Part shown: one piece after another, positions 1,681 through 46,787 of the stretch | Position numbering within the stretch: position 1 is the stretch's first letter | Layout of the letters: each line of letters opens with the position of its first letter | Assembly (NCBI RefSeq): GCF_057098645.1 | Contig: NZ_CM169472.1 | DNA length: 64,000 bases | Direction: 5' to 3' (one strand) | The notes under the pieces: model-generated | Seen by the model: only the letters and a program-made list of their open reading frames with translations | Database searches by the model: none | What the model was told of the DNA's origin: nothing | Made by a program: the position numbers and the translations under genes

Positions 1681-1825
1681 GAGGCCTTTGCTGCGACTGC
1701 CATGTTCGGGTTGCAGCATCGCACACTCTCCAACATGAAATGGCTAAATGGATTATTGTTGCGTAGGAAGGAACAATAATGATAGTGTTCCCAGAGAAGG
1801 AACGCTACTGAGAGTAAAGACACTA

Positions 1826-2110
1826 ATGAAAATGGCCAATCATCCCCGCCCGGGGGACATTATTCAGGAATCACTGGACGAACTTAATGTCAGCCTGCGC
1901 GGGTTTGCCAGAGCAATGGAAATTGCTCCCTCAACGGCAAGCCGATTGCTGACCGGAAAAGCAGCTTTGACGCCAGAAATGGCAATTAAACTTTCCGTGG
2001 TGATCGGCAGTTCGCCGCAAATGTGGCTGAATCTGCAAAACGCCTGGAGTCTGGCAGAGGCTGAAAAAACGGTGGATGTGTCGCGATTACGTCGTCTGGT
2101 TGCGCAATAA
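1826..2110 (+). CDS. yddM: XRE-family HTH protein, HigA/VapI-like (94 aa)
   Basis: Internal ATG at 1826 gives a 94-aa product; HTH-like region; synteny. Confidence 0.75.
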
Positions 2111-3880: not shown

Positions 3881-6800
3881 TTACGCCTTCTCGATGTTGA
3901 CTAAGAACGCTTTATATTCCGGCGTTTGCGAGTTTGCATCACCGACATTCGGCGTCAGAGTGTTAGCGATATAACCTTTACGCGCGACACCCTCAAAGCC
4001 CCAGTGGATTGGAATACCCACCGTTTCAACCTGCTGACCATTTACATTCAGCGGTTTCAGACGACGCGTTACCACAGCCACCGCGCGGATAAAGCCACGC
4101 TTGCTTGAGACAGTGACACGATCGCCATTATTAATGCCTTTCGCCGCCGCCAGCGTTTCGCTGATTTCCACAAACTGTTCCGGCTGAGCAATTGCGTTGA
4201 GCAATGCGTGCTTGGTCCAGGTGTGGAAGTGCTCGGTCAGACGATAGGTCGTACCCACATACGGGAACTGCTCTTTTTTACCCATCCGCAGTGCGTCTTG
4301 TTCATACAGACGAACAACCGGGTTAGACACCACGTTCGGATGCAGCGGGTTAGTGCCCAGTGGCGTTTCAATCGGCTCGTAGTGTTCCGGGAACGGACCT
4401 TCCGCCATTTTGTTGATGGCAAACAGGCGTCCCATCCCTTCCGGCTGCATGATAAACGGCCCGGTTGGCGTACCCGGTGCGGCATTGCCGAAGTCAGGAA
4501 TATCGTTACCCGTCCACTTGCTGCCGTTCCACTGGATCAGCATCCGTTTCGGATCCCACGGTTTACCGTTGATATCCGCCGAAGCACGGTTGTACAGCAC
4601 GCGACGGTTGAGCGGCCACGCCCAAGCCCATCCCAGCGTATTCCCCAGACCGGACGGGTCGGAGTTATCGAGGTTAGCCATCTGGTTGCCCTGCTCTGTC
4701 CAGCTACCGGTGTAGATCCAGCAAGAAGATGCGGTTGTACCGTCATCACGCAGATGCGCAAAGCTACTCAGCAACTGACCTTTCTTCGCAATCAGCACGC
4801 CATTAGCATCATAGAGATCTTCCAGCGCATAGCCGTTGTTCTCTTTAGCTACTTCGTCAGATTGCGGTTCGTGCGGCTGCTTGTAGTTCCAGCTCATCTT
4901 CATCAGCGGTTCTACGCCTTTACCACCTTCGGCCTGGTACAGCTCGCGCAGGTGATGGTAGATACCCGCCAGAATTTCACCGTCGTTACGCGCTTCGCCC
5001 GGCGCATCCTGACCTTTCCAGTGCCACTGCAGCCAGCGACCGGAGTTAGCAATAGAACCATCTTCTTCAGCAAAGCAGGTCGAAGGCAGACGGAATACTT
5101 CAGTCTGAATAGACGCCGGATCGACATCGTTCGACTCGCCGTGGTTCTGCCAGAAGGTTGAGGTTTCAGTCACCAGCGGATCGATAACCACCATGTACTT
5201 CAGCTTGCTCAGGCAGCTCACCACTTTGTTTTTGTCCGGGAAGGACGCAACCGGGTTAAAGCCCTGGCAGAAATAACCGGTGACTTTGCCTTCATCCATC
5301 ATGTTGAAATACTTGATGACGTCGTAGGTCTGGTCCCACTTCGGCAGCCAGTCATAGCCCCAGTTGTTCTCTTTCTGCGCGGCATCGCCATAGAAAGATT
5401 TCATCAGGCTAACGAAGAACTTCGGATAGTTGCTCCAGTAGTTCACCTGACCAGCCAGCGTCGCTTTCGGCGTGTTCGCTTCCAGATACGACTGCAAATC
5501 AACCTGTTTTTCTGACGGCAGCGTCAGATAACCTGGCAGGCTGGTAGAGAGCAGACCTAAGTCAGTCAGACCCTGAATGTTGGAGTGACCACGCAATGCA
5601 TTCACGCCGCCACCGGCCATACCCATGTTACCGAGCAGCAACTGGATCATCGCCATAATACGGATGTTCTGCGCACCCACGGTGTGCTGCGTCCAGCCCA
5701 GCGCGTACAGGAAGGTGGTTGTGCGATCCGGTGCGCTGGTGGAGGCCAGCACTTCACACACTTTCAGGAAGTCGGCTTTTGGCGTACCACAGATGTTTTC
5801 AACAACGTCCGGCGTGTAGCGGGAAACGTGCGCTTTCAGCAGGTTCCACACACAGCGCGGATGAGTCAGTGTTTCATCGCGTTTCGCATAGCCGTTTTCA
5901 TCGAACTGATAGTTCCAGGACGATTTATCGTATTGCCGTTTTTCAGCGTCGTAGCCGCTGAACAGACCGTCTTCGAAAGCAAAATCATCACGCACCAGCA
6001 GGCTGGCGTTGGTGTAATGCTTAACGTATTCGGCGTTGATTTTGTCGTTTTCGATCAGGTAGCGCAAAACGCCAGACAGGAACGTAATGTCCGTACCGGA
6101 ACGAATAGGTGCGTAAATATCCGCCACAGAAGCGGTACGCGTAAAACGGGGATCGACAACGATCAAGGTTGCATCGTTGTTGTTTTTCGCTTCCATCGCC
6201 CAGCGGAAACCGACGGGATGCGCTTCAGCAGCGTTACCGCCCATTACCATTACGACGTTAGCGTTTTTGATATCCACCCAGTGGTTGGTCATCGCACCGC
6301 GACCAAATGTTGGAGCAAGACTTGCTACCGTTGGTCCGTGTCAGACGCGCGCCTGGTTGTCTACCGCCAGCATCCCGAGGGAGCGGGCAAATTTCTGGGT
6401 CAGCATCCCGGTTTCGTTGCTGGCACCGGAAGCACACAGCATACCGGTAGAAAGCCAACGGTTTACCGTTACGCCCTGCTCGTTCTTTTCAATAAAGTTA
6501 GCGTCACGGTCAGCTTTCATCAGCTTCGCAATACGGGAGAATGCTTCTTCCCAGCTAATGCGCTGCCATTTGTCAGAACCTAGCGCACGATATTCCGGGT
6601 AGCGCAGACGGTTTTCGCTGTTGACGTAATCCAGCAAACCGGCCCCTTTCGGGCACAGCGCACCACGGCTTACCGGATGATCCGGGTCACCTTCAATGTG
6701 ATAAATCGCTTCTCTGGCGTTTTTCGCGCCATCACCCAGGCTATACATCAATAGCCCGCAACCTACGGAACAGTATGTGCAGGTGTTACGGATCTCTTTA

Positions 6801-22675: not shown

Positions 22676-23245
22676 ATGAGCCGATTCATCCCCATAGAAT
22701 TACACCATGCCAGCCGTCTGTTAAATCATGGCCCAACGGTCTTGATCACCAGTTTCGATGAGCAATCCCAGCGGCGTAACATTATGGCTGCAGCCTGGTC
22801 AATGCCGGTGGAGTTTGAACCGCCACGCGTCGCGATTGTGGTAGATAAATCGACATGGACCAGGGAGTTGATTGAACGTAACGGTAAGTTTGGCATCGTT
22901 ATCCCGGGCGTTGCAGCAACTAACTGGACGTGGGCGGTGGGAAGTGTGTCGGGGCGTGATGAAGATAAATTTAATTGCTATGGCATTCCGGTTGTGAGAG
23001 GCCCGGTATTTGGTTTGCCTCTGGTCGAGGAAAAATGTCTGGCGTGGATGGAGTGCCGCCTGCTACCTGCGACTTCTGCGCAACAAAAATACGATACGCT
23101 GTTTGGCGAGGTGGTATCAGCAGCGGCAGACGCACGGGTATTTGTCGAAGGCCGCTGGCAGTTTGATGATGATAAGCTCAATACGTTGCATCATTTAGGT
23201 GCTGGCACGTTTGTTACCAGCGGCAAGCGTGTTACGGCAGGTTAA
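22676..23245 (+). CDS. yddH: Flavin reductase-like protein
   Basis: ATG 22676 after GAGG; ORF-track start 22628 is an upstream alternative start. Confidence 0.8.
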   Translation: MSRFIPIELHHASRLLNHGPTVLITSFDEQSQRRNIMAAAWSMPVEFEPPRVAIVVDKSTWTRELIERNGKFGIVIPGVAATNWTWAVGSVSGRDEDKFNCYGIPVVRGPVFGLPLVEEKCLAWMECRLLPATSAQQKYDTLFGEVVSAAADARVFVEGRWQFDDDKLNTLHHLGAGTFVTSGKRVTAG

Positions 23246-23248
23246 GCA

Positions 23249-23476
23249 TTACATGCTGTAACCGGGTTTCTTTATCAAAGCCTCCATTTGGGGCGCGATT
23301 TCGGCATCCCAGATAGCTTGCCAAGATTCTGGTTGAATCTGCTGTAGAGCAATGCTTATCGAACTGTCTTTACTGTTCATATGGCGAATAATAACGTCGG
23401 TAATATCTGCAGCAAGTGCTGCTTTTTGTTGTTCGTCCAGTTCACGCGGAAAACATTTAATGTCTATGTGCGGCAT
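23249..23476 (-). CDS. pptA: Tautomerase (4-oxalocrotonate tautomerase family)
   Basis: 75 aa starting MPHIDIK (Pro1 catalytic after Met removal). Confidence 0.8.
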
Positions 23477-23574
23477 GATTACGCTCCTTTTGAAAGATGT
23501 CAGTAAAATTAACACACATTGTGAATGTCGTGTGTCCGGTAATGCGTTTTTACGACAATAATGCCAGGGCAAGA

Positions 23575-24102
23575 TTACGAAAGCCTTCTCCCCGCAAGGA
23601 CTGACGCCAGGTAGTTTCTGTCCATGGCTGCTTTTCGCATCTTACGTCTTAACCCAGCCTTGAATACCTTATCATTCGTCAAAATATTAATAGCAATGTG
23701 CCGTATCCCTGAAAATAATTCTGCTGCATTTCCTCTTCTTATTTTGCAGTCGTCTTCATTCATTACCACGTCCAGACGCCAGTGCAGCTTATTCTCCACG
23801 TGCCAGTGGTTTCGGATTGCTGTGGCGAACTTCTCTGCGGTTAAATCAGCAGAACTGATATAATATCTGACCGTCATTTCTGGCTCTTTCTTTTGTTCTG
23901 CTATTATGGACCGAAAGGAGACTGCCACGCATAATTTCTTCAGCCCTTTCCATTCAAACGTGAAATCAATAAGTTCATCAGGAACATCGCAAACAATATG
24001 AAGACGGATTTCTTCTCTGCCGTGACTAAAATGCGAATTATTTAGTACAAAAAAAGCGGCGCACCTTGTTCTTTCCCAGATTCCTAATATGGCAACTTTA
24101 AG
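23575..24102 (-). pseudogene. ISAs1-family (H-repeat-associated) transposase, 3' fragment only
   Basis: Open frame of 175 codons with no start codon; C-terminal region with [22 protein letters not shown] typical of H-repeat ORFs; N-terminal half replaced by AT-rich DNA. Confidence 0.7.
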
Positions 24103-24266
24103 TTATCGCCGTCTATACTTATAGAAATTTCATCAGGGGTGACATAAATAGAATTTTTTTCATCCTCAATTGCCCATAACTGATTAATAAAAAAGTGTTT
24201 TTTATCATCTAATAACAAATCATCACATGTAGTAAAATTATTAATATCAAAAAAAATCATCAGCAC
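24084..24266 (-). CDS. Hypothetical small acidic protein (58-60 aa)
   Basis: ORF only; overlaps the end of the upstream ORF; no clear RBS. Confidence 0.3.
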
Positions 24267-24678
24267 AATTAATTTTTAAATTTAAAAAATAAAGAAAAAT
24301 ATTATTGATTGATTTGAGTGTAAACCACTTGTCATTAACAAATTTATAGCTAGATGATTTTATAAAATAATAATTATCTCCTGGTATAAAGGCATACATA
24401 TCATTTAAGGTTATACTCAACAAAAAACTACGACCTGGTTTAATAGTATTCCAGCGTTCAGGATTCGTATTAATTTCAAAAGGACATGAACCACCTAAGT
24501 AGTCCAACGTGATATTCCCAGAGTTGATCCTGAATGGTTTTTTGCATATCGCATCATATTCATCTCCTTTTCCATCTTTTACTTTCATAGGTAGATAATA
24601 TTTAGAAAAAAAATACGTGGTAGAGCTATTGTTAGTAAAGGTTATGTTAGCAAAAATCCTGTTATTTTTTTTACTCAT
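24247..24678 (-). CDS. Hypothetical protein; frame is open upstream to 24822 without a start (possible disrupted gene)
   Basis: 143-aa ORF from ATG 24678; same frame open for a further 48 codons upstream; an overlapping 38-codon ORF with ATG lies in another frame. Confidence 0.4.
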   Translation of the reverse strand: MSKKNNRIFANITFTNNSSTTYFFSKYYLPMKVKDGKGDEYDAICKKPFRINSGNITLDYLGGSCPFEINTNPERWNTIKPGRSFLLSITLNDMYAFIPGDNYYFIKSSSYKFVNDKWFTLKSINNIFLYFLNLKINCADDFF

Positions 24679-24956
24679 AGCTAATTGAGCATTGACATCC
24701 GCTATATAATTTATATGATTACATTTTTTCTTACACTCATCATAATTTTCGATAGGATAAATTAATGGTCTTCCTTTGATATCTCTCTCAAGCCCAAACC
24801 CGTATTTTTTATTAAAACCATTTCATCCGCAGTCGATTGAAAGGAATAGAAAAATATAATATTTACGATTGTCATTATTATGATTTTTTTATAGCTTGCA
24901 GCATTAATATATTTCTCGACTTATTAGTTAATGGAGAAGTGTTTTTTCTAATTCCG

Positions 24957-25184
24957 CTATTTTTTCTTAACTGAATTGCTTAATATTTCATCATTAATCG
25001 AGTCTATCTCACTTTCAATTAATCTTATTTCAAAATATCTTTCTATGTTATATGCATTCTCAAATATTTGATCTTTTTGTTTAGAGATCAGTTTAGTTGC
25101 AATACGGATATGTTCGTCATATGAAACTTCATCCTCTTTGCACGTTGAATATTTATCAGTAGTTGTATAATCCTGTGACCACAT
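24957..25184 (-). CDS. Hypothetical acidic protein (75 aa)
   Basis: ATG preceded by AAAAGGTGGT; net acidic; AT-rich. Confidence 0.5.
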   Translation of the reverse strand: MWSQDYTTTDKYSTCKEDEVSYDEHIRIATKLISKQKDQIFENAYNIERYFEIRLIESEIDSINDEILSNSVKKK

Positions 25185-25266
25185 ACCACCTTTTTATTAT
25201 CCCCATAATACCACTGAATATGAGACATTTCATGACATAAAGTAGTAACATGAGAATCCTTTCCCG

Positions 25267-25716
25267 TTACTGGATTTTTTTGCCATCTCTATACTCAAAT
25301 TTTGCGCCTATGTTAATTATATAGGACATATCCTTACTTGGGCTGACGAATGCTGCAAATTCATTACAACCTGTATAATTTATAAAACTGCTCATTGTTA
25401 AATCATTAGCTATAATCATTAATCTTCTCACGCCATCCATCATAAGAAATCTAGCATTCATGCGCCTACCTGTATTATATCCATATTTTCTTATATTAAC
25501 TTCCTTATTTCCTTTAACACCAAAGATCTTACTGAAATAATATTCCTCCTGTGCTCCCCATCTCAAAAGATCATCTGCTCTTTTTATCAAAACCAACTTT
25601 TGTGCCTTACGAGCCTTATCAATCATTATTTTAAAATGATCAGTTATTTTTTGCTCTTTCACACATTCTTCTGGCTCTGGCTTTGGTTGTCCAGAAGTTT
25701 GATTATTATCGTCCAT
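25267..25716 (-). CDS. Hypothetical basic protein (149 aa from internal ATG)
   Basis: ATG 25716 preceded by GGAAGGA; net basic; no family recognised. Confidence 0.5.
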   Translation of the reverse strand: MDDNNQTSGQPKPEPEECVKEQKITDHFKIMIDKARKAQKLVLIKRADDLLRWGAQEEYYFSKIFGVKGNKEVNIRKYGYNTGRRMNARFLMMDGVRRLMIIANDLTMSSFINYTGCNEFAAFVSPSKDMSYIINIGAKFEYRDGKKIQ

Positions 25717-25903
25717 AGTGTCCTTCCATTGAGAGAAAATCATCATTCGCAAATAGCAACTAAAAAGCAGCATTACTTGACCTTTCCCTGCATAACAATA
25801 TTTATAAAATAATACGTTTTATGATCTCACCTTGGGCTCCCAACAAGATAATTTCAGTTTTAAAGACTTTCACGAAAAAAATATAGAAATACCTCACCAC
25901 CCT

Positions 25904-26194
25904 TCACTTACCAATTAATCTCACAGGAAATCCAACTTCCTTACCACAAATACAATCCCAAGTAACACCTCCCAAAATTTTTGATACTTTAGGCTGCAAT
26001 GGCATTATTGACATTATAAATTTATCAAGTTCTTCGCTATATTTAATTCCCTTTATATTTCTTATTATTGATATTCTAGCAGTAAAGATAGCCGTCTCTC
26101 CATCTACACTAAAAGTGTAATTACAATTTTTTGTAATCTCATCAAATTCAACCGATAACAAATCAATATTATGGTTTGTAAACACTATGCCCAT
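25904..26194 (-). CDS. Hypothetical protein (96 aa), candidate immunity partner of the upstream papain-like domain
   Basis: ATG 26194 overlaps the stop of the upstream ORF by 26 nt. Confidence 0.45.
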   Translation of the reverse strand: MGIVFTNHNIDLLSVEFDEITKNCNYTFSVDGETAIFTARISIIRNIKGIKYSEELDKFIMSIMPLQPKVSKILGGVTWDCICGKEVGFPVRLIGK

Positions 26195-26672
26195 TCCATA
26201 CCTCCTTAAATTCCTGTTCAGTCATCAGATATCGACTCCCTTGATATGGATCATATATTATCACATTCCCAGCATCATCAACACCCTTAACAAGTACCCA
26301 ATGCCCTACTTTACTTCCAGAATCCCATATCATTGCTCCCCATGAACCAGTATTACTGAGGGCATATAAACTAGATTCGCTCACTGCATTCCCTTCCCAG
26401 CCGACATCAAATTTATTAAGCTTGTTTGCCAGCGACGTCATAGATGTTAATTCTGTTCCAATTACATTTTGCGTGACAAAAATATACCTATCCCTAAGCA
26501 ACATTTCCCCACAGGCCGCTCCACAGCCTGTTAAAGTCAATTGCTTTATTACATTTGAATCTAAAACCTCATCAAATACTGTCCAATTGCCACCAGCACC
26601 ACCTTCTAAAACTACCGGCTCTACAAATACTTTCCCAGAGATATTTTCTTCTGGTATTTTTGCGGGTATCCA
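26169..26672 (-). pseudogene. Orphan papain-like (C39-like) cysteine peptidase-fold domain without an ATG/GTG start
   Basis: Frame open 26672-26169; only TTG at 26540; motifs TGCGAACGEML (Cys) and GHWVLVKGVDD...IIYDP (His, Asp) in papain-fold order. Confidence 0.5.
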
Positions 26673-28144
26673 TTACTGGTGGCGTCTTCAAACCGCAGCT
26701 CGTTAAATCCGCTTCCTTTATAGGTTTTTGACCGGATGGTCATCTGCGTCTTCGTTCCCGGCAGGTCGCCCGGCGAACGGTTGTCCTCATGGTAGGTCCG
26801 CCCCATGATTATCGGCTGGTCCGGGTCGCCGTTCAGAAAATCAACAATCACCTCCTGGCCCACCCGCGGTATCGCCAGGTTACCGAACCCCGGCCCCGCC
26901 CACGCCTGCGACACCCGCACCCAGCATGAACTCGCCTCCGTCATCCCGTGATAACGGTCCCAGTGGAACTTCACCCGTACCCGGCCATGCTCGTCGCAGA
27001 AAATCTCTTCTCCCGCAGGCCCGGTGACAATGGCGCTCTGTGGCCCGTCCACCTTCGGTTTGTTTTGCAGCCGTGGACGCCACGTCCGGTCCGCCGGTAT
27101 CACCTCTAACTGATTTCCCAGCGTGGTTCCCTTTCCCTGGCTGCCGTGCAGCGCCTGCGGCTGGCTTCCTGACAGTATGCTCTGTACCACCTGCCATTCA
27201 CGGTTCAGCATCTTCTGCGGATGCCTCGTCAGCGTAAACCGCGTTCCCGGCCACAGCCTCGGCGAATTACTCTGCCCTGTGGCCTTTTCCGCATCACTGC
27301 GCAGGCTGTCCATCTGGTACAGCGTGAAATCCTTGCCGTGCTGCTCGTCCTTGAACCTTCCCGGATAATCAAATATCTCATACTGCGCCAGCTGTCCGTT
27401 CAGGTTCTCACCCTGCTGCTCATACATCCCCGGCCAGTCCGGCACCTTAAACGTGTAATCCTGGCTCTGTACCGACGACGGGCGGACATACGCCTCATAA
27501 CGGAACATACTGACACACTCTGTCTCCGCTCCTGCCGATGTGTCCGGGTTAAACGGAAACTCCCCCGCCTGTGACAGCCCCGCCACATCGTCGCACAGCG
27601 TCAGCTTCTGCTCCGGACTGTCCGCCGCAAACCGCTCAAAGAAGAAAATCCCCTCCTCCGCCCACAGCCGCGCCAGAAACGCCAGGTCGCTCTCACCGTA
27701 CTGGACACAGAACTCCCGCGCCGGATGGTCTTCATAAAACAGCGGAGTCCACTCCGTGACGCCGTTCTCGTTCAGTAACGTGGCCGATACCGTCCGGATA
27801 TCCTGCTGCTGGAAGATACGGAAGTTCTGCCGCAGCCCGCACCGCCATAACGGCGGCTCAATACGCAGGTGATAACGCATCTGCCAGCCATTGTTCTCCT
27901 GCATGCCAAAGCCCGCCACCACGCCGGTAACATAACGCAGCGGGATGACGCCCTGCCAGATGGTCAGCGTCGCCTTCTTCTCCAGCAGCATCCCCGCCGT
28001 CTGCATAAAAGAGTCGCTGGCAACATCCACACTCATCACAAACGGATATGACTGGTTCTGGATTAACCTGAAATTCGCCACTGCAAAGGTGTCCGGCTCC
28101 TGGCCGTCAATCTCCAGCGTAAAGCGCAGACCTTTTAAGGACAT
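26621..28144 (-). CDS. VgrG (T6SS spike) N-terminal gp27/gp5-like portion, truncated at ~490 residues
   Basis: Conserved VgrG blocks incl. SSCWVRVSQAWAGPGFGNLAIPRVGQEVIVDFLNGDPDQPIIMGRTY; C-terminal 20 residues unrelated; GC-rich then abrupt AT-rich junction near 26670. Confidence 0.85.
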   Translation of the reverse strand: MSLKGLRFTLEIDGQEPDTFAVANFRLIQNQSYPFVMSVDVASDSFMQTAGMLLEKKATLTIWQGVIPLRYVTGVVAGFGMQENNGWQMRYHLRIEPPLWRCGLRQNFRIFQQQDIRTVSATLLNENGVTEWTPLFYEDHPAREFCVQYGESDLAFLARLWAEEGIFFFERFAADSPEQKLTLCDDVAGLSQAGEFPFNPDTSAGAETECVSMFRYEAYVRPSSVQSQDYTFKVPDWPGMYEQQGENLNGQLAQYEIFDYPGRFKDEQHGKDFTLYQMDSLRSDAEKATGQSNSPRLWPGTRFTLTRHPQKMLNREWQVVQSILSGSQPQALHGSQGKGTTLGNQLEVIPADRTWRPRLQNKPKVDGPQSAIVTGPAGEEIFCDEHGRVRVKFHWDRYHGMTEASSCWVRVSQAWAGPGFGNLAIPRVGQEVIVDFLNGDPDQPIIMGRTYHEDNRSPGDLPGTKTQMTIRSKTYKGSGFNELRFEDATSNGYPQKYQKKISLGKYL

Positions 28145-28162
28145 AAATACCTCTCAGACATA

Positions 28163-28447
28163 TCAGCCTACATTTACCGTACCGCCACCAATGACCACAC
28201 CACCACAGTCGATGGCATCACCGGTTCTGGCGGCGGGCAGGCCGTCAATAAAGACGGTTGACGAGCCTCTGGCGATTTTACGGGGATGAGGGGGATGCTT
28301 CGGTTTAGCATGCGGCGTCAGCGGATCTCCCTGGCGGGCTGCGGGGAGACCATCGATAAAAACGGTGGATGACCCGGCGGTGATGACGGTCTCGTAATAA
28401 CCGTCGTGCTGGGTGCCTTTGTCGGTGAGTTTGGCTGCTAAAGGCAT
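28163..28447 (-). CDS. PAAR-domain protein (94 aa)
   Basis: Two STVFIDGLPAAR(Q/T)GD PAAR motifs; AGGAGG RBS; 18 bp upstream of vgrG. Confidence 0.8.
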   Translation of the reverse strand: MPLAAKLTDKGTQHDGYYETVITAGSSTVFIDGLPAARQGDPLTPHAKPKHPPHPRKIARGSSTVFIDGLPAARTGDAIDCGGVVIGGGTVNVG

Positions 28448-28986
28448 AATTCCTCCTGTTCAGAATTTCTACAGCAGCAGGTTTCAAAAATCCGGAGAAA
28501 TATTCAACGAAATATTAATCACTTCACCGGATATTCTGATACGTACCTTCACTGGTCTATTTAAGTAATACAAATTGTTGGCGTGAATTAAGTTCCATTT
28601 TGTTCTCCTTAATTATGTAAGGAGTATTTGATCATGTATAAGCAATAAAAACAGCTTCAGGAAATAAGGAATATCGCAATTTTTAAACATAAAATGCGAA
28701 TCGTTCAATACAAAAAAGCAGCGTTGCGTAATCTTTCCCTGATTAAATACGCTACCGCCCTACCCTGATGACATGATCTGCACTGCACTATCATATCGAC
28801 ATGTTTCTCTACATGCGAAAAGATGTTTTATTTTCGGATTGTATTAAATTGATATTTCATATAAAAAACGAAATTACATCAATCATATAAATAGTTGTAC
28901 CAACTTTAATTACTATTCATAGCAAACAAATGAATATCCAGTTAACTACGCCAGTGATTCATTAACATTAACCTCCGGCATTATTG

Positions 28987-29604
28987 TTAAATAATGACAT
29001 TCCTTTTTAATACTTCTTGTAATTTCGGTAACTGACATACAGCATCAGCAATCGCACTGATATTCGTGGCATTATCCTGAAACCATTCATGCCCAGGCCC
29101 CCATGTGCGCATAGTGCAAAGATAACAGTCCACCAGCGTTAGTTGCTCACCAAACGCATAAGGTTCAGCGGTCAATTGTGAATTCAGCCAGATATAAAGC
29201 GATTTACGATATTCAATAACATTCTTCTTTAACTGTTCGGGTGCGTCAGGAGCCCAACGCTCAGGGTAATCGGCGAAAGTGAATGTTGGATAGACATTAG
29301 CAACCAGCCAGACCAATAGCCGTTGAAACTGCTGACGTTCGGCGCGCCCAACCGGTGGCGCAAGGTCCGGGCGACGATCGAGAACCATCAATGCAATCGC
29401 CGCTGTCTCCGTCATAATCTCGTCATTTTCCAGCGCCAGTGTCGGAATCTGACACAACGGGTTCAGGGTTTTCAATAACTCGCGTGAAGTTCCCTCGTGG
29501 TCAAAACCACTGACATCAACGAACTGATAAGGAATATCAGCCAGTGTTAGCATCAGCTCACTGATTGTAGAGCCCCATCCGGGTACGCCATACACCTTAA
29601 TCAT
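28987..29604 (-). CDS. yncG: Glutathione S-transferase-like protein
   Basis: 205 aa; GST fold sequence; synteny. Confidence 0.85.
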   Translation of the reverse strand: MIKVYGVPGWGSTISELMLTLADIPYQFVDVSGFDHEGTSRELLKTLNPLCQIPTLALENDEIMTETAAIALMVLDRRPDLAPPVGRAERQQFQRLLVWLVANVYPTFTFADYPERWAPDAPEQLKKNVIEYRKSLYIWLNSQLTAEPYAFGEQLTLVDCYLCTMRTWGPGHEWFQDNATNISAIADAVCQLPKLQEVLKRNVII

Positions 29605-29870
29605 ATGCCCCTCACAATCTTTTAAAGATTAAGTGTAGGACAGTACACAGGTTAACCAGCAAAAGGATTTGTCATTTTTTCGTCAGTTGTATTAATCCCC
29701 TTCAGGATTGTAAGGGGATGTTTTGCATCGTTTATCGATAACGGGTAGGATGCTGCGCCGATAGTTTTATACCCATAAAGAATAATGGTGATAACTATCA
29801 TCGCCAGGATGAATAAACATTGTTCATGGCAACTTATATGACTTTTTCATTAAAGCAATCAGGGAGAGCA

Positions 29871-37969: not shown

Positions 37970-38203
37970 TCACAGGATGGTGCCGCCTTTGGTTAACTGT
38001 TCATGGCGCGCTTCCATATCTTCTTTATGCTTGCGACCGTGATGAGCAATAGCGGTGCGCAAACGCTGCTGCTGGGTGTAGCGATCTTCCCGACTTAACT
38101 CCGCGTCATCGCTCAGGGCGATTAATAATTCGTTCATATGGGCAATGACGCTCTCTTCAATCGCGGCATCCACGCGCGCGATGACTTCATCCAGATGCGA
38201 CAT
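37970..38203 (-). CDS. ydcY: Small protein of unknown function
   Basis: 77 aa; synteny. Confidence 0.8.
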   Translation of the reverse strand: MSHLDEVIARVDAAIEESVIAHMNELLIALSDDAELSREDRYTQQQRLRTAIAHHGRKHKEDMEARHEQLTKGGTIL

Positions 38204-38288
38204 ACTTTCTCCTTAGCCACTTGTGAAATTTATCGATTCATCCAAATGATATAAGTCTGCGTGGTGCCGTCAAGCCAGTGAGTAAGAT

Positions 38289-38462
38289 TTAAAACAGTGA
38301 AAACAACAGCGCCACCGGGAAACTCATCGGCCATGTTGCCCCCACCAGAAAGGCGCTTAAGAAACGGATGCGTTTCTTATCGTGAGAAAGAAACCAGGTG
38401 ATAAGAAATGCGATTGCTGCCATAACCGCATAAAAAACAAGCATGTGTTGATAGAGAGACAT
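38289..38462 (-). CDS. ortT: Small membrane toxin OrtT (GhoT-like), 57 aa
   Basis: Internal ATG at 38462; two hydrophobic helices. Confidence 0.75.
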   Translation of the reverse strand: MSLYQHMLVFYAVMAAIAFLITWFLSHDKKRIRFLSAFLVGATWPMSFPVALLFSLF

Positions 38463-38656
38463 GTACGGGCGTCCAGCCAGATGAATAAAACGCGCGCAAA
38501 TATGCGTCATTTTTTGACGTGCATCAAGTTTTTTAACCGGTTTGAGAAAAAAACATCAAACAGCAACTTGCCCTTATCCATCTTCAGAATGAGTATTATT
38601 GCGGATTTTCTTAACCCGTACTATACACATAGGGGCAATGATAAAAGGTGGCAAAA

Positions 38657-45849: not shown

Positions 45850-45927
45850 TATCGAATCGTAATTATGTGCAGATGATTCGGCAATCTATATCAGTTGTTA
45901 AAAATGACAACTTTTCATTAACTGTTA

Positions 45928-46344
<417 letters not shown>

Positions 46345-46389
46345 AATTTCGACTGTCTCTCGCATGTCATTAACCTTTTTAATTGGCGA

Positions 46390-46566
46390 TTAACTCAAAC
46401 CGAGTTGTTTCAGGATTGCTTTACGCAATGGTTCTTTAATCTCATCGCAGGGGTGACGCGGCATGACACTGCGCCTCCCATGAAACCTGAGTTTCAAATG
46501 GTTGCTGCCATTCGCTACATCGACGCCCTGAGATTCGAGCCAACGTCTGAACTCGCTTTGTTTCAC
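46390..46566 (-). CDS. hicA: HicA mRNA interferase toxin (58 aa, GTG start)
   Basis: Translates to VKQSEFRRWLESQGVDVANGSNHLKLRFHG...; below the ORF-track size cutoff. Confidence 0.85.
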   Translation of the reverse strand: MKQSEFRRWLESQGVDVANGSNHLKLRFHGRRSVMPRHPCDEIKEPLRKAILKQLGLS

Positions 46567-46787
46567 ATCGCCTCCCTGCCGCTGAGTATATCAACAAAGT
46601 AAACATTAGTGTTTACCTCCGTGTGTAATTTGCTCGAAAATAGCACTAAATCGCCGCAACGGCAGAATGCAATGCAAAATCAGGAAGGAAGATTCCAGAA
46701 TTTCTTTGCGCTAATTTGCAAAACTGAATAATAACCTCAAGAAACGATCGGCATCATAGCGGCAAAAGGTAAGAAAAAGGTGGCAGG

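Follow-up and report, generated by a model that had tools for sequence, protein, structure and literature searches.

The window analysed here, a stretch of 64,000 nucleotides that is 99.9% identical to Escherichia coli O145 RM9872, carries on its minus strand an open frame that encodes the motifs of a papain-like cysteine protease and lies directly after a truncated vgrG. The questions raised by this locus are to which family the frame belongs, how it came to lie behind vgrG and whether an active toxin can still be made from it.

Identity of the frame and its active site

The frame begins just after a TAA and runs through 167 codons to a stop; it is real, as an earlier note on this DNA had claimed, and the three motifs listed in that note, TGCGAACGEML, GHWVLVKGVDD and IIYDP, are all present in the translation. 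Its DNA is about 99.6–99.7% identical to the 3' end of cpe1 from E. coli S88 (nt 939–1440), and frame residues 25–167 are identical at 142 of 143 positions to chain A of PDB entry 9L5U, the crystallised toxin domain of Cpe1 (E = 1.2e-95). Because of the DNA match and the match to 9L5U, the frame is, as judged from sequence comparison, a 3' fragment of the known gene cpe1 and not a chance open reading frame. The features of the frame are as follows.

26169..26672, minus strand: cpe1' frame (translation, DNA match to S88 cpe1, PDB entry 9L5U, Pfam PF03412)
26541..26543, minus strand: Gln356 codon, invariant among the aligned homologs, directly before the TTG at 26540
26523..26525, minus strand: catalytic Cys362 codon (invariant among the aligned homologs, published C362A variant, numbering offset)
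26301..26303, minus strand: catalytic His436 codon (alignment and sequence)
26250..26252, minus strand: catalytic Asp453 codon (alignment and sequence)

In E. coli ATCC 11775, Cpe1 is a papain-like cysteine protease that is delivered by the T6SS, and 9L5U is the complex of its toxin domain with the immunity protein Cpi1 (Song et al., 2025, PLoS Biol, PMC12136450). The substrates of Cpe1 are GyrB and ParE, which it cuts after the Gly-Gly in the sequence LHAGGKF; the C362A variant is inactive and no longer toxic (PMC12136450). Cpi1 neutralises the toxin and blocks a hydrophobic exosite, to which the substrate also binds, and not the active site. In structure the toxin domain is closest to the C39 domains of ComA and LahT, and homologs fused to VgrG are known in other species (PMC12136450).

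Bases 26670..26172 of the window correspond to cpe1 codons 314–479, the last 166 codons of the gene, and thus to a 24-residue linker followed by the papain-like toxin domain in full; the frame opens with a TGG codon (26672..26670) that straddles the junction with vgrG. Addition of 312 to the frame position gives Cpe1 numbering, and this offset reproduces C362 and all six published exosite residues (L387, M390, A408, M426, W428 and V434), each of which is present. The sole difference from the crystallised sequence is M427I, in which the residue adjoining the exosite residues is Ile and not Met, and which is specific to the O145 lineage. Compared with the Cpe1/Cpi1 module of ATCC 11775, the same gene as in S88, UTI89 and LF82, the window copy therefore agrees at 142/143 toxin residues and at 96/96 immunity residues, and the catalytic residues, the six exosite residues and the overlap of the toxin and immunity genes are all the same.

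The C39-like papain fold proposed in the earlier note is borne out by a Pfam match of the frame to Peptidase_C39 (PF03412; E = 4.5e-7) as well as by the identity to the crystallised domain. That note had made its proposal depend on the conservation of Cys, His and Asp; in an alignment of 27 homologs with 35–67% identity, taken from a protein database search that returned short proteins only (≤224 aa) and hence without full-length carriers, Gln356, Cys362, His436 and Asp453 are all invariant, as are the GAGGNW motif and a Glu. Gln356 is presumably the oxyanion-hole Gln of C39-type peptidases. The equivalent of Cys362 is Ala in the CdiA-CT crystal constructs. The GAGGNW motif, at 26583..26600 (minus strand), lies at the N-terminal edge of the toxin domain and is invariant in 27/27 homologs, whether PAAR- or CdiA-linked; it may serve as a marker of the toxin-domain boundary.

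The papain-like CdiA-CT toxins with CdiI (8SSK, 8SSM and 12AJ) contain a homologous toxin domain (E about 1e-49 to 1e-55), in which the GAGGNW...Q...C...H...D elements follow the same layout, and Cpi1 and the CdiI of 8SSM are related immunity proteins (E = 6e-9). However, these toxins are delivered by contact-dependent inhibition, whereas Cpe1 is delivered by the T6SS, and they are clearly diverged from the window toxin. The middle region of Cpe1 (residues ~202–313; 5663..6000 of the S88 locus extract) is also homologous to the N-terminal half of CdiA-CT (8SSK chain A, 40–150), so that the similarity between the T6SS and CDI versions extends beyond the protease domain. The C39 peptidases of ABC exporters such as ComA and LahT (PF03412) have the fold and the catalytic residues in common with Cpe1, and both cut after Gly-Gly (PMC12136450), but Cpe1 is a toxin against topoisomerases, whereas the exporter domains process leader peptides; no ABC transporter domains, transmembrane or ATPase, were found in the frame or its neighbours. 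The family, which the earlier note had felt unable to name exactly, is thus that of Cpe1, with an intact cpi1 adjoining. NCBIfam models recognise PAAR and VgrG alone at this locus, and none of them matches Cpe1tox, Cpi1, the M35 metallopeptidase encoded further downstream or the product of the gene after it.

The vgrG–cpe1 junction and its surroundings

In S88, the parent gene encodes a protein of 479 aa and lies in the order hcp-vgrG-DUF2169-cpe1-cpi1 between the T6SS-1 core genes and yafV. Full-length Cpe1 is a PAAR-like (DUF4150) protein of which the toxin sequence of the window forms the C-terminus, and this context occurs in about 298–304 other E. coli genomes. The frame had been read in the earlier note as the displaced C-terminal domain of a VgrG, Rhs or PAAR fusion, with a search for homologs as C-terminal extensions named as a check; such an extension exists, and the parent is a PAAR-like fusion and not one to VgrG or Rhs. 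Since full-length cpe1 exists elsewhere, the frame is a fragment and not a gene of its own, and it came to adjoin vgrG only secondarily, through a junction that is out of frame. The truncation of the preceding vgrG, also claimed in that note, is plain from the open reading frame 28144..26621, which RefSeq annotates as a pseudogene. The locus reads ansP-yncG-PAAR-vgrG'-cpe1'-cpi1-M35 fragments-ISAs1 remnant-pptA-yddH-nhoA, and the parts that bear on its origin are the following.

28163..28447, minus strand: intact PAAR gene of 94 aa that heads the module (NF033420, E = 9.8e-47; RefSeq)
26621..28144, minus strand: vgrG', open reading frame in which vgrG homology stops at 26671; RefSeq pseudogene without the C-terminus
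26670..26671, no strand assigned: junction 1, where vgrG nt 1474 meets cpe1 nt 939; both parents have an ATG at the break
25759..25761, no strand assigned: junction 2, from S88-type sequence to the last 56 nt of a second vgrG and then the M35 module, as in LF82
24084..25773, minus strand: decayed second orphan module, comprising an M35 metallopeptidase effector gene and the following gene, both broken by indels
29700..26671: mosaic segment matching LF82 yncG-PAAR-vgrG, to vgrG nt 1474, at 95% identity
26670..25759: mosaic segment matching S88 cpe1 nt 939–1440, cpi1 and 145 nt of S88-type sequence beyond it, at 99.7% identity
25761..24775: mosaic segment matching the last 56 nt of the second vgrG of LF82 and then its M35 gene, at 98.5% identity

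The vgrG' gene is cut in codon 491 of about 655, its TIGR03361 match covers positions 1–483 of 513, and past the junction its open reading frame continues through 15 out-of-frame cpe1-derived codons to a TAG at 26623..26621, the cpe1 frame being −1 relative to vgrG'. At the junction the GC content falls from about 60% in vgrG' to about 40%. Comparison with S88 had suggested a 9-nt non-templated filler, CAGTAATGG, at this position; this was rejected, as the vgrG of LF82, among other paralogs, continues ...ACCAGTAATG, and the join is therefore clean at 26671|26670. A natural cassette boundary at M313|I314 was likewise considered and rejected: since homology to CdiA-CT runs from about residue 202 through the break, the break does not fall at a module boundary. 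The ATG at 26673..26671 occupies the position of the cpe1 Met313 codon, one base out of the toxin frame, and a join shorter by one base would give an ATG-started toxin open reading frame (Met-Ile-Pro-Ala-Lys...).

Relative to the S88-type module, the 3' third of vgrG, the DUF2169 adaptor gene, the start codon of cpe1 and Cpe1 residues 1–313, that is, the PAAR-like carrier and the CdiA-CT-like middle region, are absent, and the copy lies at yncG-pptA, whereas the Cpe1 parent lies at aspV-yafV. The toxin domain is not in frame with a complete VgrG spike, as it would be in an evolved VgrG, nor with any other N-terminal delivery carrier (PAAR-like, Rhs or CdiA). With the carrier residues 1–313 absent and vgrG' in another frame, the frame is therefore a fragment of Cpe1 and not a functional member of the family.

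The cpe1tox-cpi1 module is present in 332 of 5426 complete E. coli genomes, in one copy each, and the cpe1 5' part is present in 304, a count that fits its absence from the genomes with the vgrG'|cpe1' junction. These number 31 of the 5426 and comprise O145:H28 and relatives together with a few others (33F4 and ECNB21-M121). Lineages that differ by 3% in vgrG' have exactly the same junction, which therefore arose once.

Further decay is evident downstream. The M35 gene, which in LF82 lies directly after an 801-aa vgrG, and the next gene (263 aa) are both intact in 33F4; relative to 33F4, the O145 module carries five single-base indels, at 25282, 25196, 24966, 24811 and 24256, and the island as a whole is therefore decaying, with PAAR and cpi1 the only intact T6SS-related genes left in it. 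Remnants of ISAs1-family transposase genes and their flanks, at 23575..24035 (minus strand) and 28588..28748, bracket the island, and the sequence flanking an ISAs1 remnant also follows cpi1 in S88; the array may have been assembled by IS-mediated rearrangement. Elsewhere in the window, the RM9872 annotation includes the small toxin–antitoxin genes higA-like yddM, ortT, hicAB and hokB, at approximately 1800..2100, 38000..38500, 45900..46600 and 62000, which are unrelated to cpe1'.

Translation of the remnant and alternative readings

Between the upstream TAA and Gln356 there is no ATG, GTG or TTG, and the first canonical start is the TTG at 26540, so that no start codon covers the whole catalytic domain. 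The earlier note had stated that the frame has no ATG or GTG and only this TTG; in fact four ATGs (26504, 26441, 26333 and 26225) and two GTGs (26384 and 26264) are in frame, all of them downstream of the Cys362 codon, and the statement is correct for the part upstream of Gln356. In the surrounding region, 10 promoter-like sites were counted, which is not above the shuffle expectation of 6.1 ± 2.6, a terminator scan gave nothing above shuffle expectation, and a search of 23000..29800 against Rfam gave no matches at gathering thresholds.

We consider it probable that 26672..26169 is what remains of an effector gene that is now silent, and that the adjoining cpi1 is an orphan immunity gene. An illegitimate join of cpe1 nt 939 to vgrG nt 1474, in the auxiliary T6SS island at yncG-pptA, would have left a remnant in which the toxin domain is complete and its active site intact, yet which is out of frame with vgrG'. 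Because the remnant is out of frame and no canonical start would include Gln356, most likely no active protease is made from it, nor is one loaded on a T6SS spike, and the remnant is presumably not expressed at all.

It is unlikely, although conceivable, that the remnant is kept as a silent reserve, to be re-armed by recombination with full-length cpe1 or another carrier, as for orphan rhs-CT and cdiA-CT. What speaks for such a reserve is that the toxin domain, the 24 linker residues and cpi1 are undisrupted in two lineages: in both the O145 and the 33F4 lineage the remnant is free of nonsense and frameshift changes. However, the recency of the event explains this retention equally well; the O145, 33F4 and S88 copies show only two differences in 504 nt, and because the divergence is only about 0.4%, the intactness of the remnant carries no weight either way. 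The genome counts (304 with the cpe1 5' part and 332 with the toxin module) also fit 31 genomes without the 5' region, and since the sequence upstream of the junction is vgrG and not a carrier, there is no upstream homology arm. PAAR-like carriers are alike over their first 125 residues only (1–125), with 54% identity. The T6SS-1 cluster is also absent from the O145 aspV-yafV site, which in RM9872 (241395..244383) holds no more than a hypothetical gene, an hcp remnant and a pseudogene fragment, whereas S88 has the T6SS-1 cluster and full-length cpe1 there.

A second alternative concerns a heptamer in the overlap of the two frames.

26630..26636, minus strand: G_GGA_AAG heptamer in the vgrG' zero frame, at which a −1 slip would enter the cpe1 frame

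Frameshifting here would give a 658-aa VgrG'–Cpe1tox chimera resembling an evolved VgrG, and we regard this as very improbable, together with its corollary that a newborn effector of this kind is made by a small fraction of ribosomes and is harmless at home through Cpi1. The heptamer is correctly phased, two codons before the vgrG' stop, and ribosomes that slipped would continue in the cpe1 frame from Val at frame position 15, before any part of the toxin domain; moreover, G_GG.A_AA.G is among the three most efficient −1 motifs of E. coli when stimulators are present (PMC4066793), and the homologs of Cpe1 fused to VgrG in other species (PMC12136450) offer a precedent for the product. In this case, however, the downstream RNA fold is not significant (z = −0.37) and there is no Shine–Dalgarno-like element upstream, and motifs without stimulators gave only 2–10 times the 0.055% background (PMC4066793). 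Four such in-phase heptamers occur within the 508 codons of vgrG', so the presence of one in the 17-codon overlap is unremarkable, and the heptamer is native cpe1 sequence (encoding Ser-Gly-Lys), phased only by the accident of the junction. The VgrG' portion would also be without the β-helical C-terminal part, and a VgrG that lacks this part should not carry a PAAR tip.

Scarcely more credible is a live stand-alone protease started from the TTG at 26540 (123 aa) or the ATG at 26504 (111 aa), to which we assign the same slight chance as to the frameshift. RefSeq does annotate 26504..26169 as a coding sequence for a 'cysteine peptidase family C39 domain-containing protein', and the TTG open reading frame is also called. 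However, the ATG product begins at residue 369, past Cys362, and the TTG product begins at residue 357, one codon after Gln356, and so loses the first 20 residues of the crystallised domain, with Gln356 and the invariant GAGGNW...E segment among the losses. Inspection of the upstream 20-mers revealed no Shine–Dalgarno sequence before either start.

The least probable reading by far, that of a periplasmic T6SS effector of the papain-fold peptidoglycan-amidase type, which the earlier note had entertained, has in its favour the generic Cys-His-Asp order only and can be set aside, as the 99% identical toxin cuts the cytoplasmic targets GyrB and ParE (PMC12136450) and the Pfam search of the frame gave matches to the C39 and C70 families, with NlpC/P60 and CHAP absent.

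The cpi1 gene and its probable role

The part of the locus that appears still to be functional is cpi1, the cognate immunity gene that lies immediately downstream of the toxin frame.

25904..26194, minus strand: cpi1, intact, 96 aa, with a 26-nt overlap with the end of the cpe1 frame
26200..26207, minus strand: strong Shine–Dalgarno sequence of cpi1, AAGGAGGT, read from the sequence, 5 nt before the ATG and within the last codons of the cpe1 fragment

The cpi1 product is 100% identical (96/96) to chain C of 9L5U, deposited as Cpi1, and has the same protein accession, WP_000513317.1, as the S88 protein. In the O145 RefSeq records this accession is named 'hypothetical protein', whereas in S88 it is named 'Cpi1'. 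An intact immunity gene and a truncated cognate effector are thus found in one genome, which is the arrangement of an orphan immunity gene. To judge from its sequence and setting, cpi1 would be protective against incoming Cpe1, and it is presumably expressed; Cpi1 would bind the exosite of the incoming toxin and shield this EHEC-type lineage from Cpe1-armed E. coli, which are mostly of the B2/ExPEC type.

That polymorphic toxin loci contain effector remnants next to orphan immunity genes is textbook knowledge. For the V. cholerae T6SS, as for rhs and CDI loci, displaced 3' ends of effector genes have been described together with orphan immunity genes (Kirchberger et al., 2017, PMC5361080), and the present locus resembles these cases in that an intact immunity gene follows the 3' end of a former effector and in that the array includes another decayed effector module (M35) and IS remnants. 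In the published pattern, however, displacement occurs through a new effector–immunity module at a shared homology boundary (PMC5361080), whereas here illegitimate recombination has joined the fragment upstream to the body of a vgrG, to which it is unrelated.

In conclusion, the family, structure, targets and immunity mechanism of Cpe1 were already published in 2025, and the locus adds nothing new in kind. For the O145:H28 RefSeq records, the analysis amounts to a correction of the annotation, in which the 111-aa C39 coding sequence is a fragment and the adjacent 'hypothetical protein' is Cpi1. For the organism, the proposed immunity of an EHEC-type lineage to a T6SS toxin found mainly in B2/ExPEC strains could affect the partners with which it coexists in the gut.
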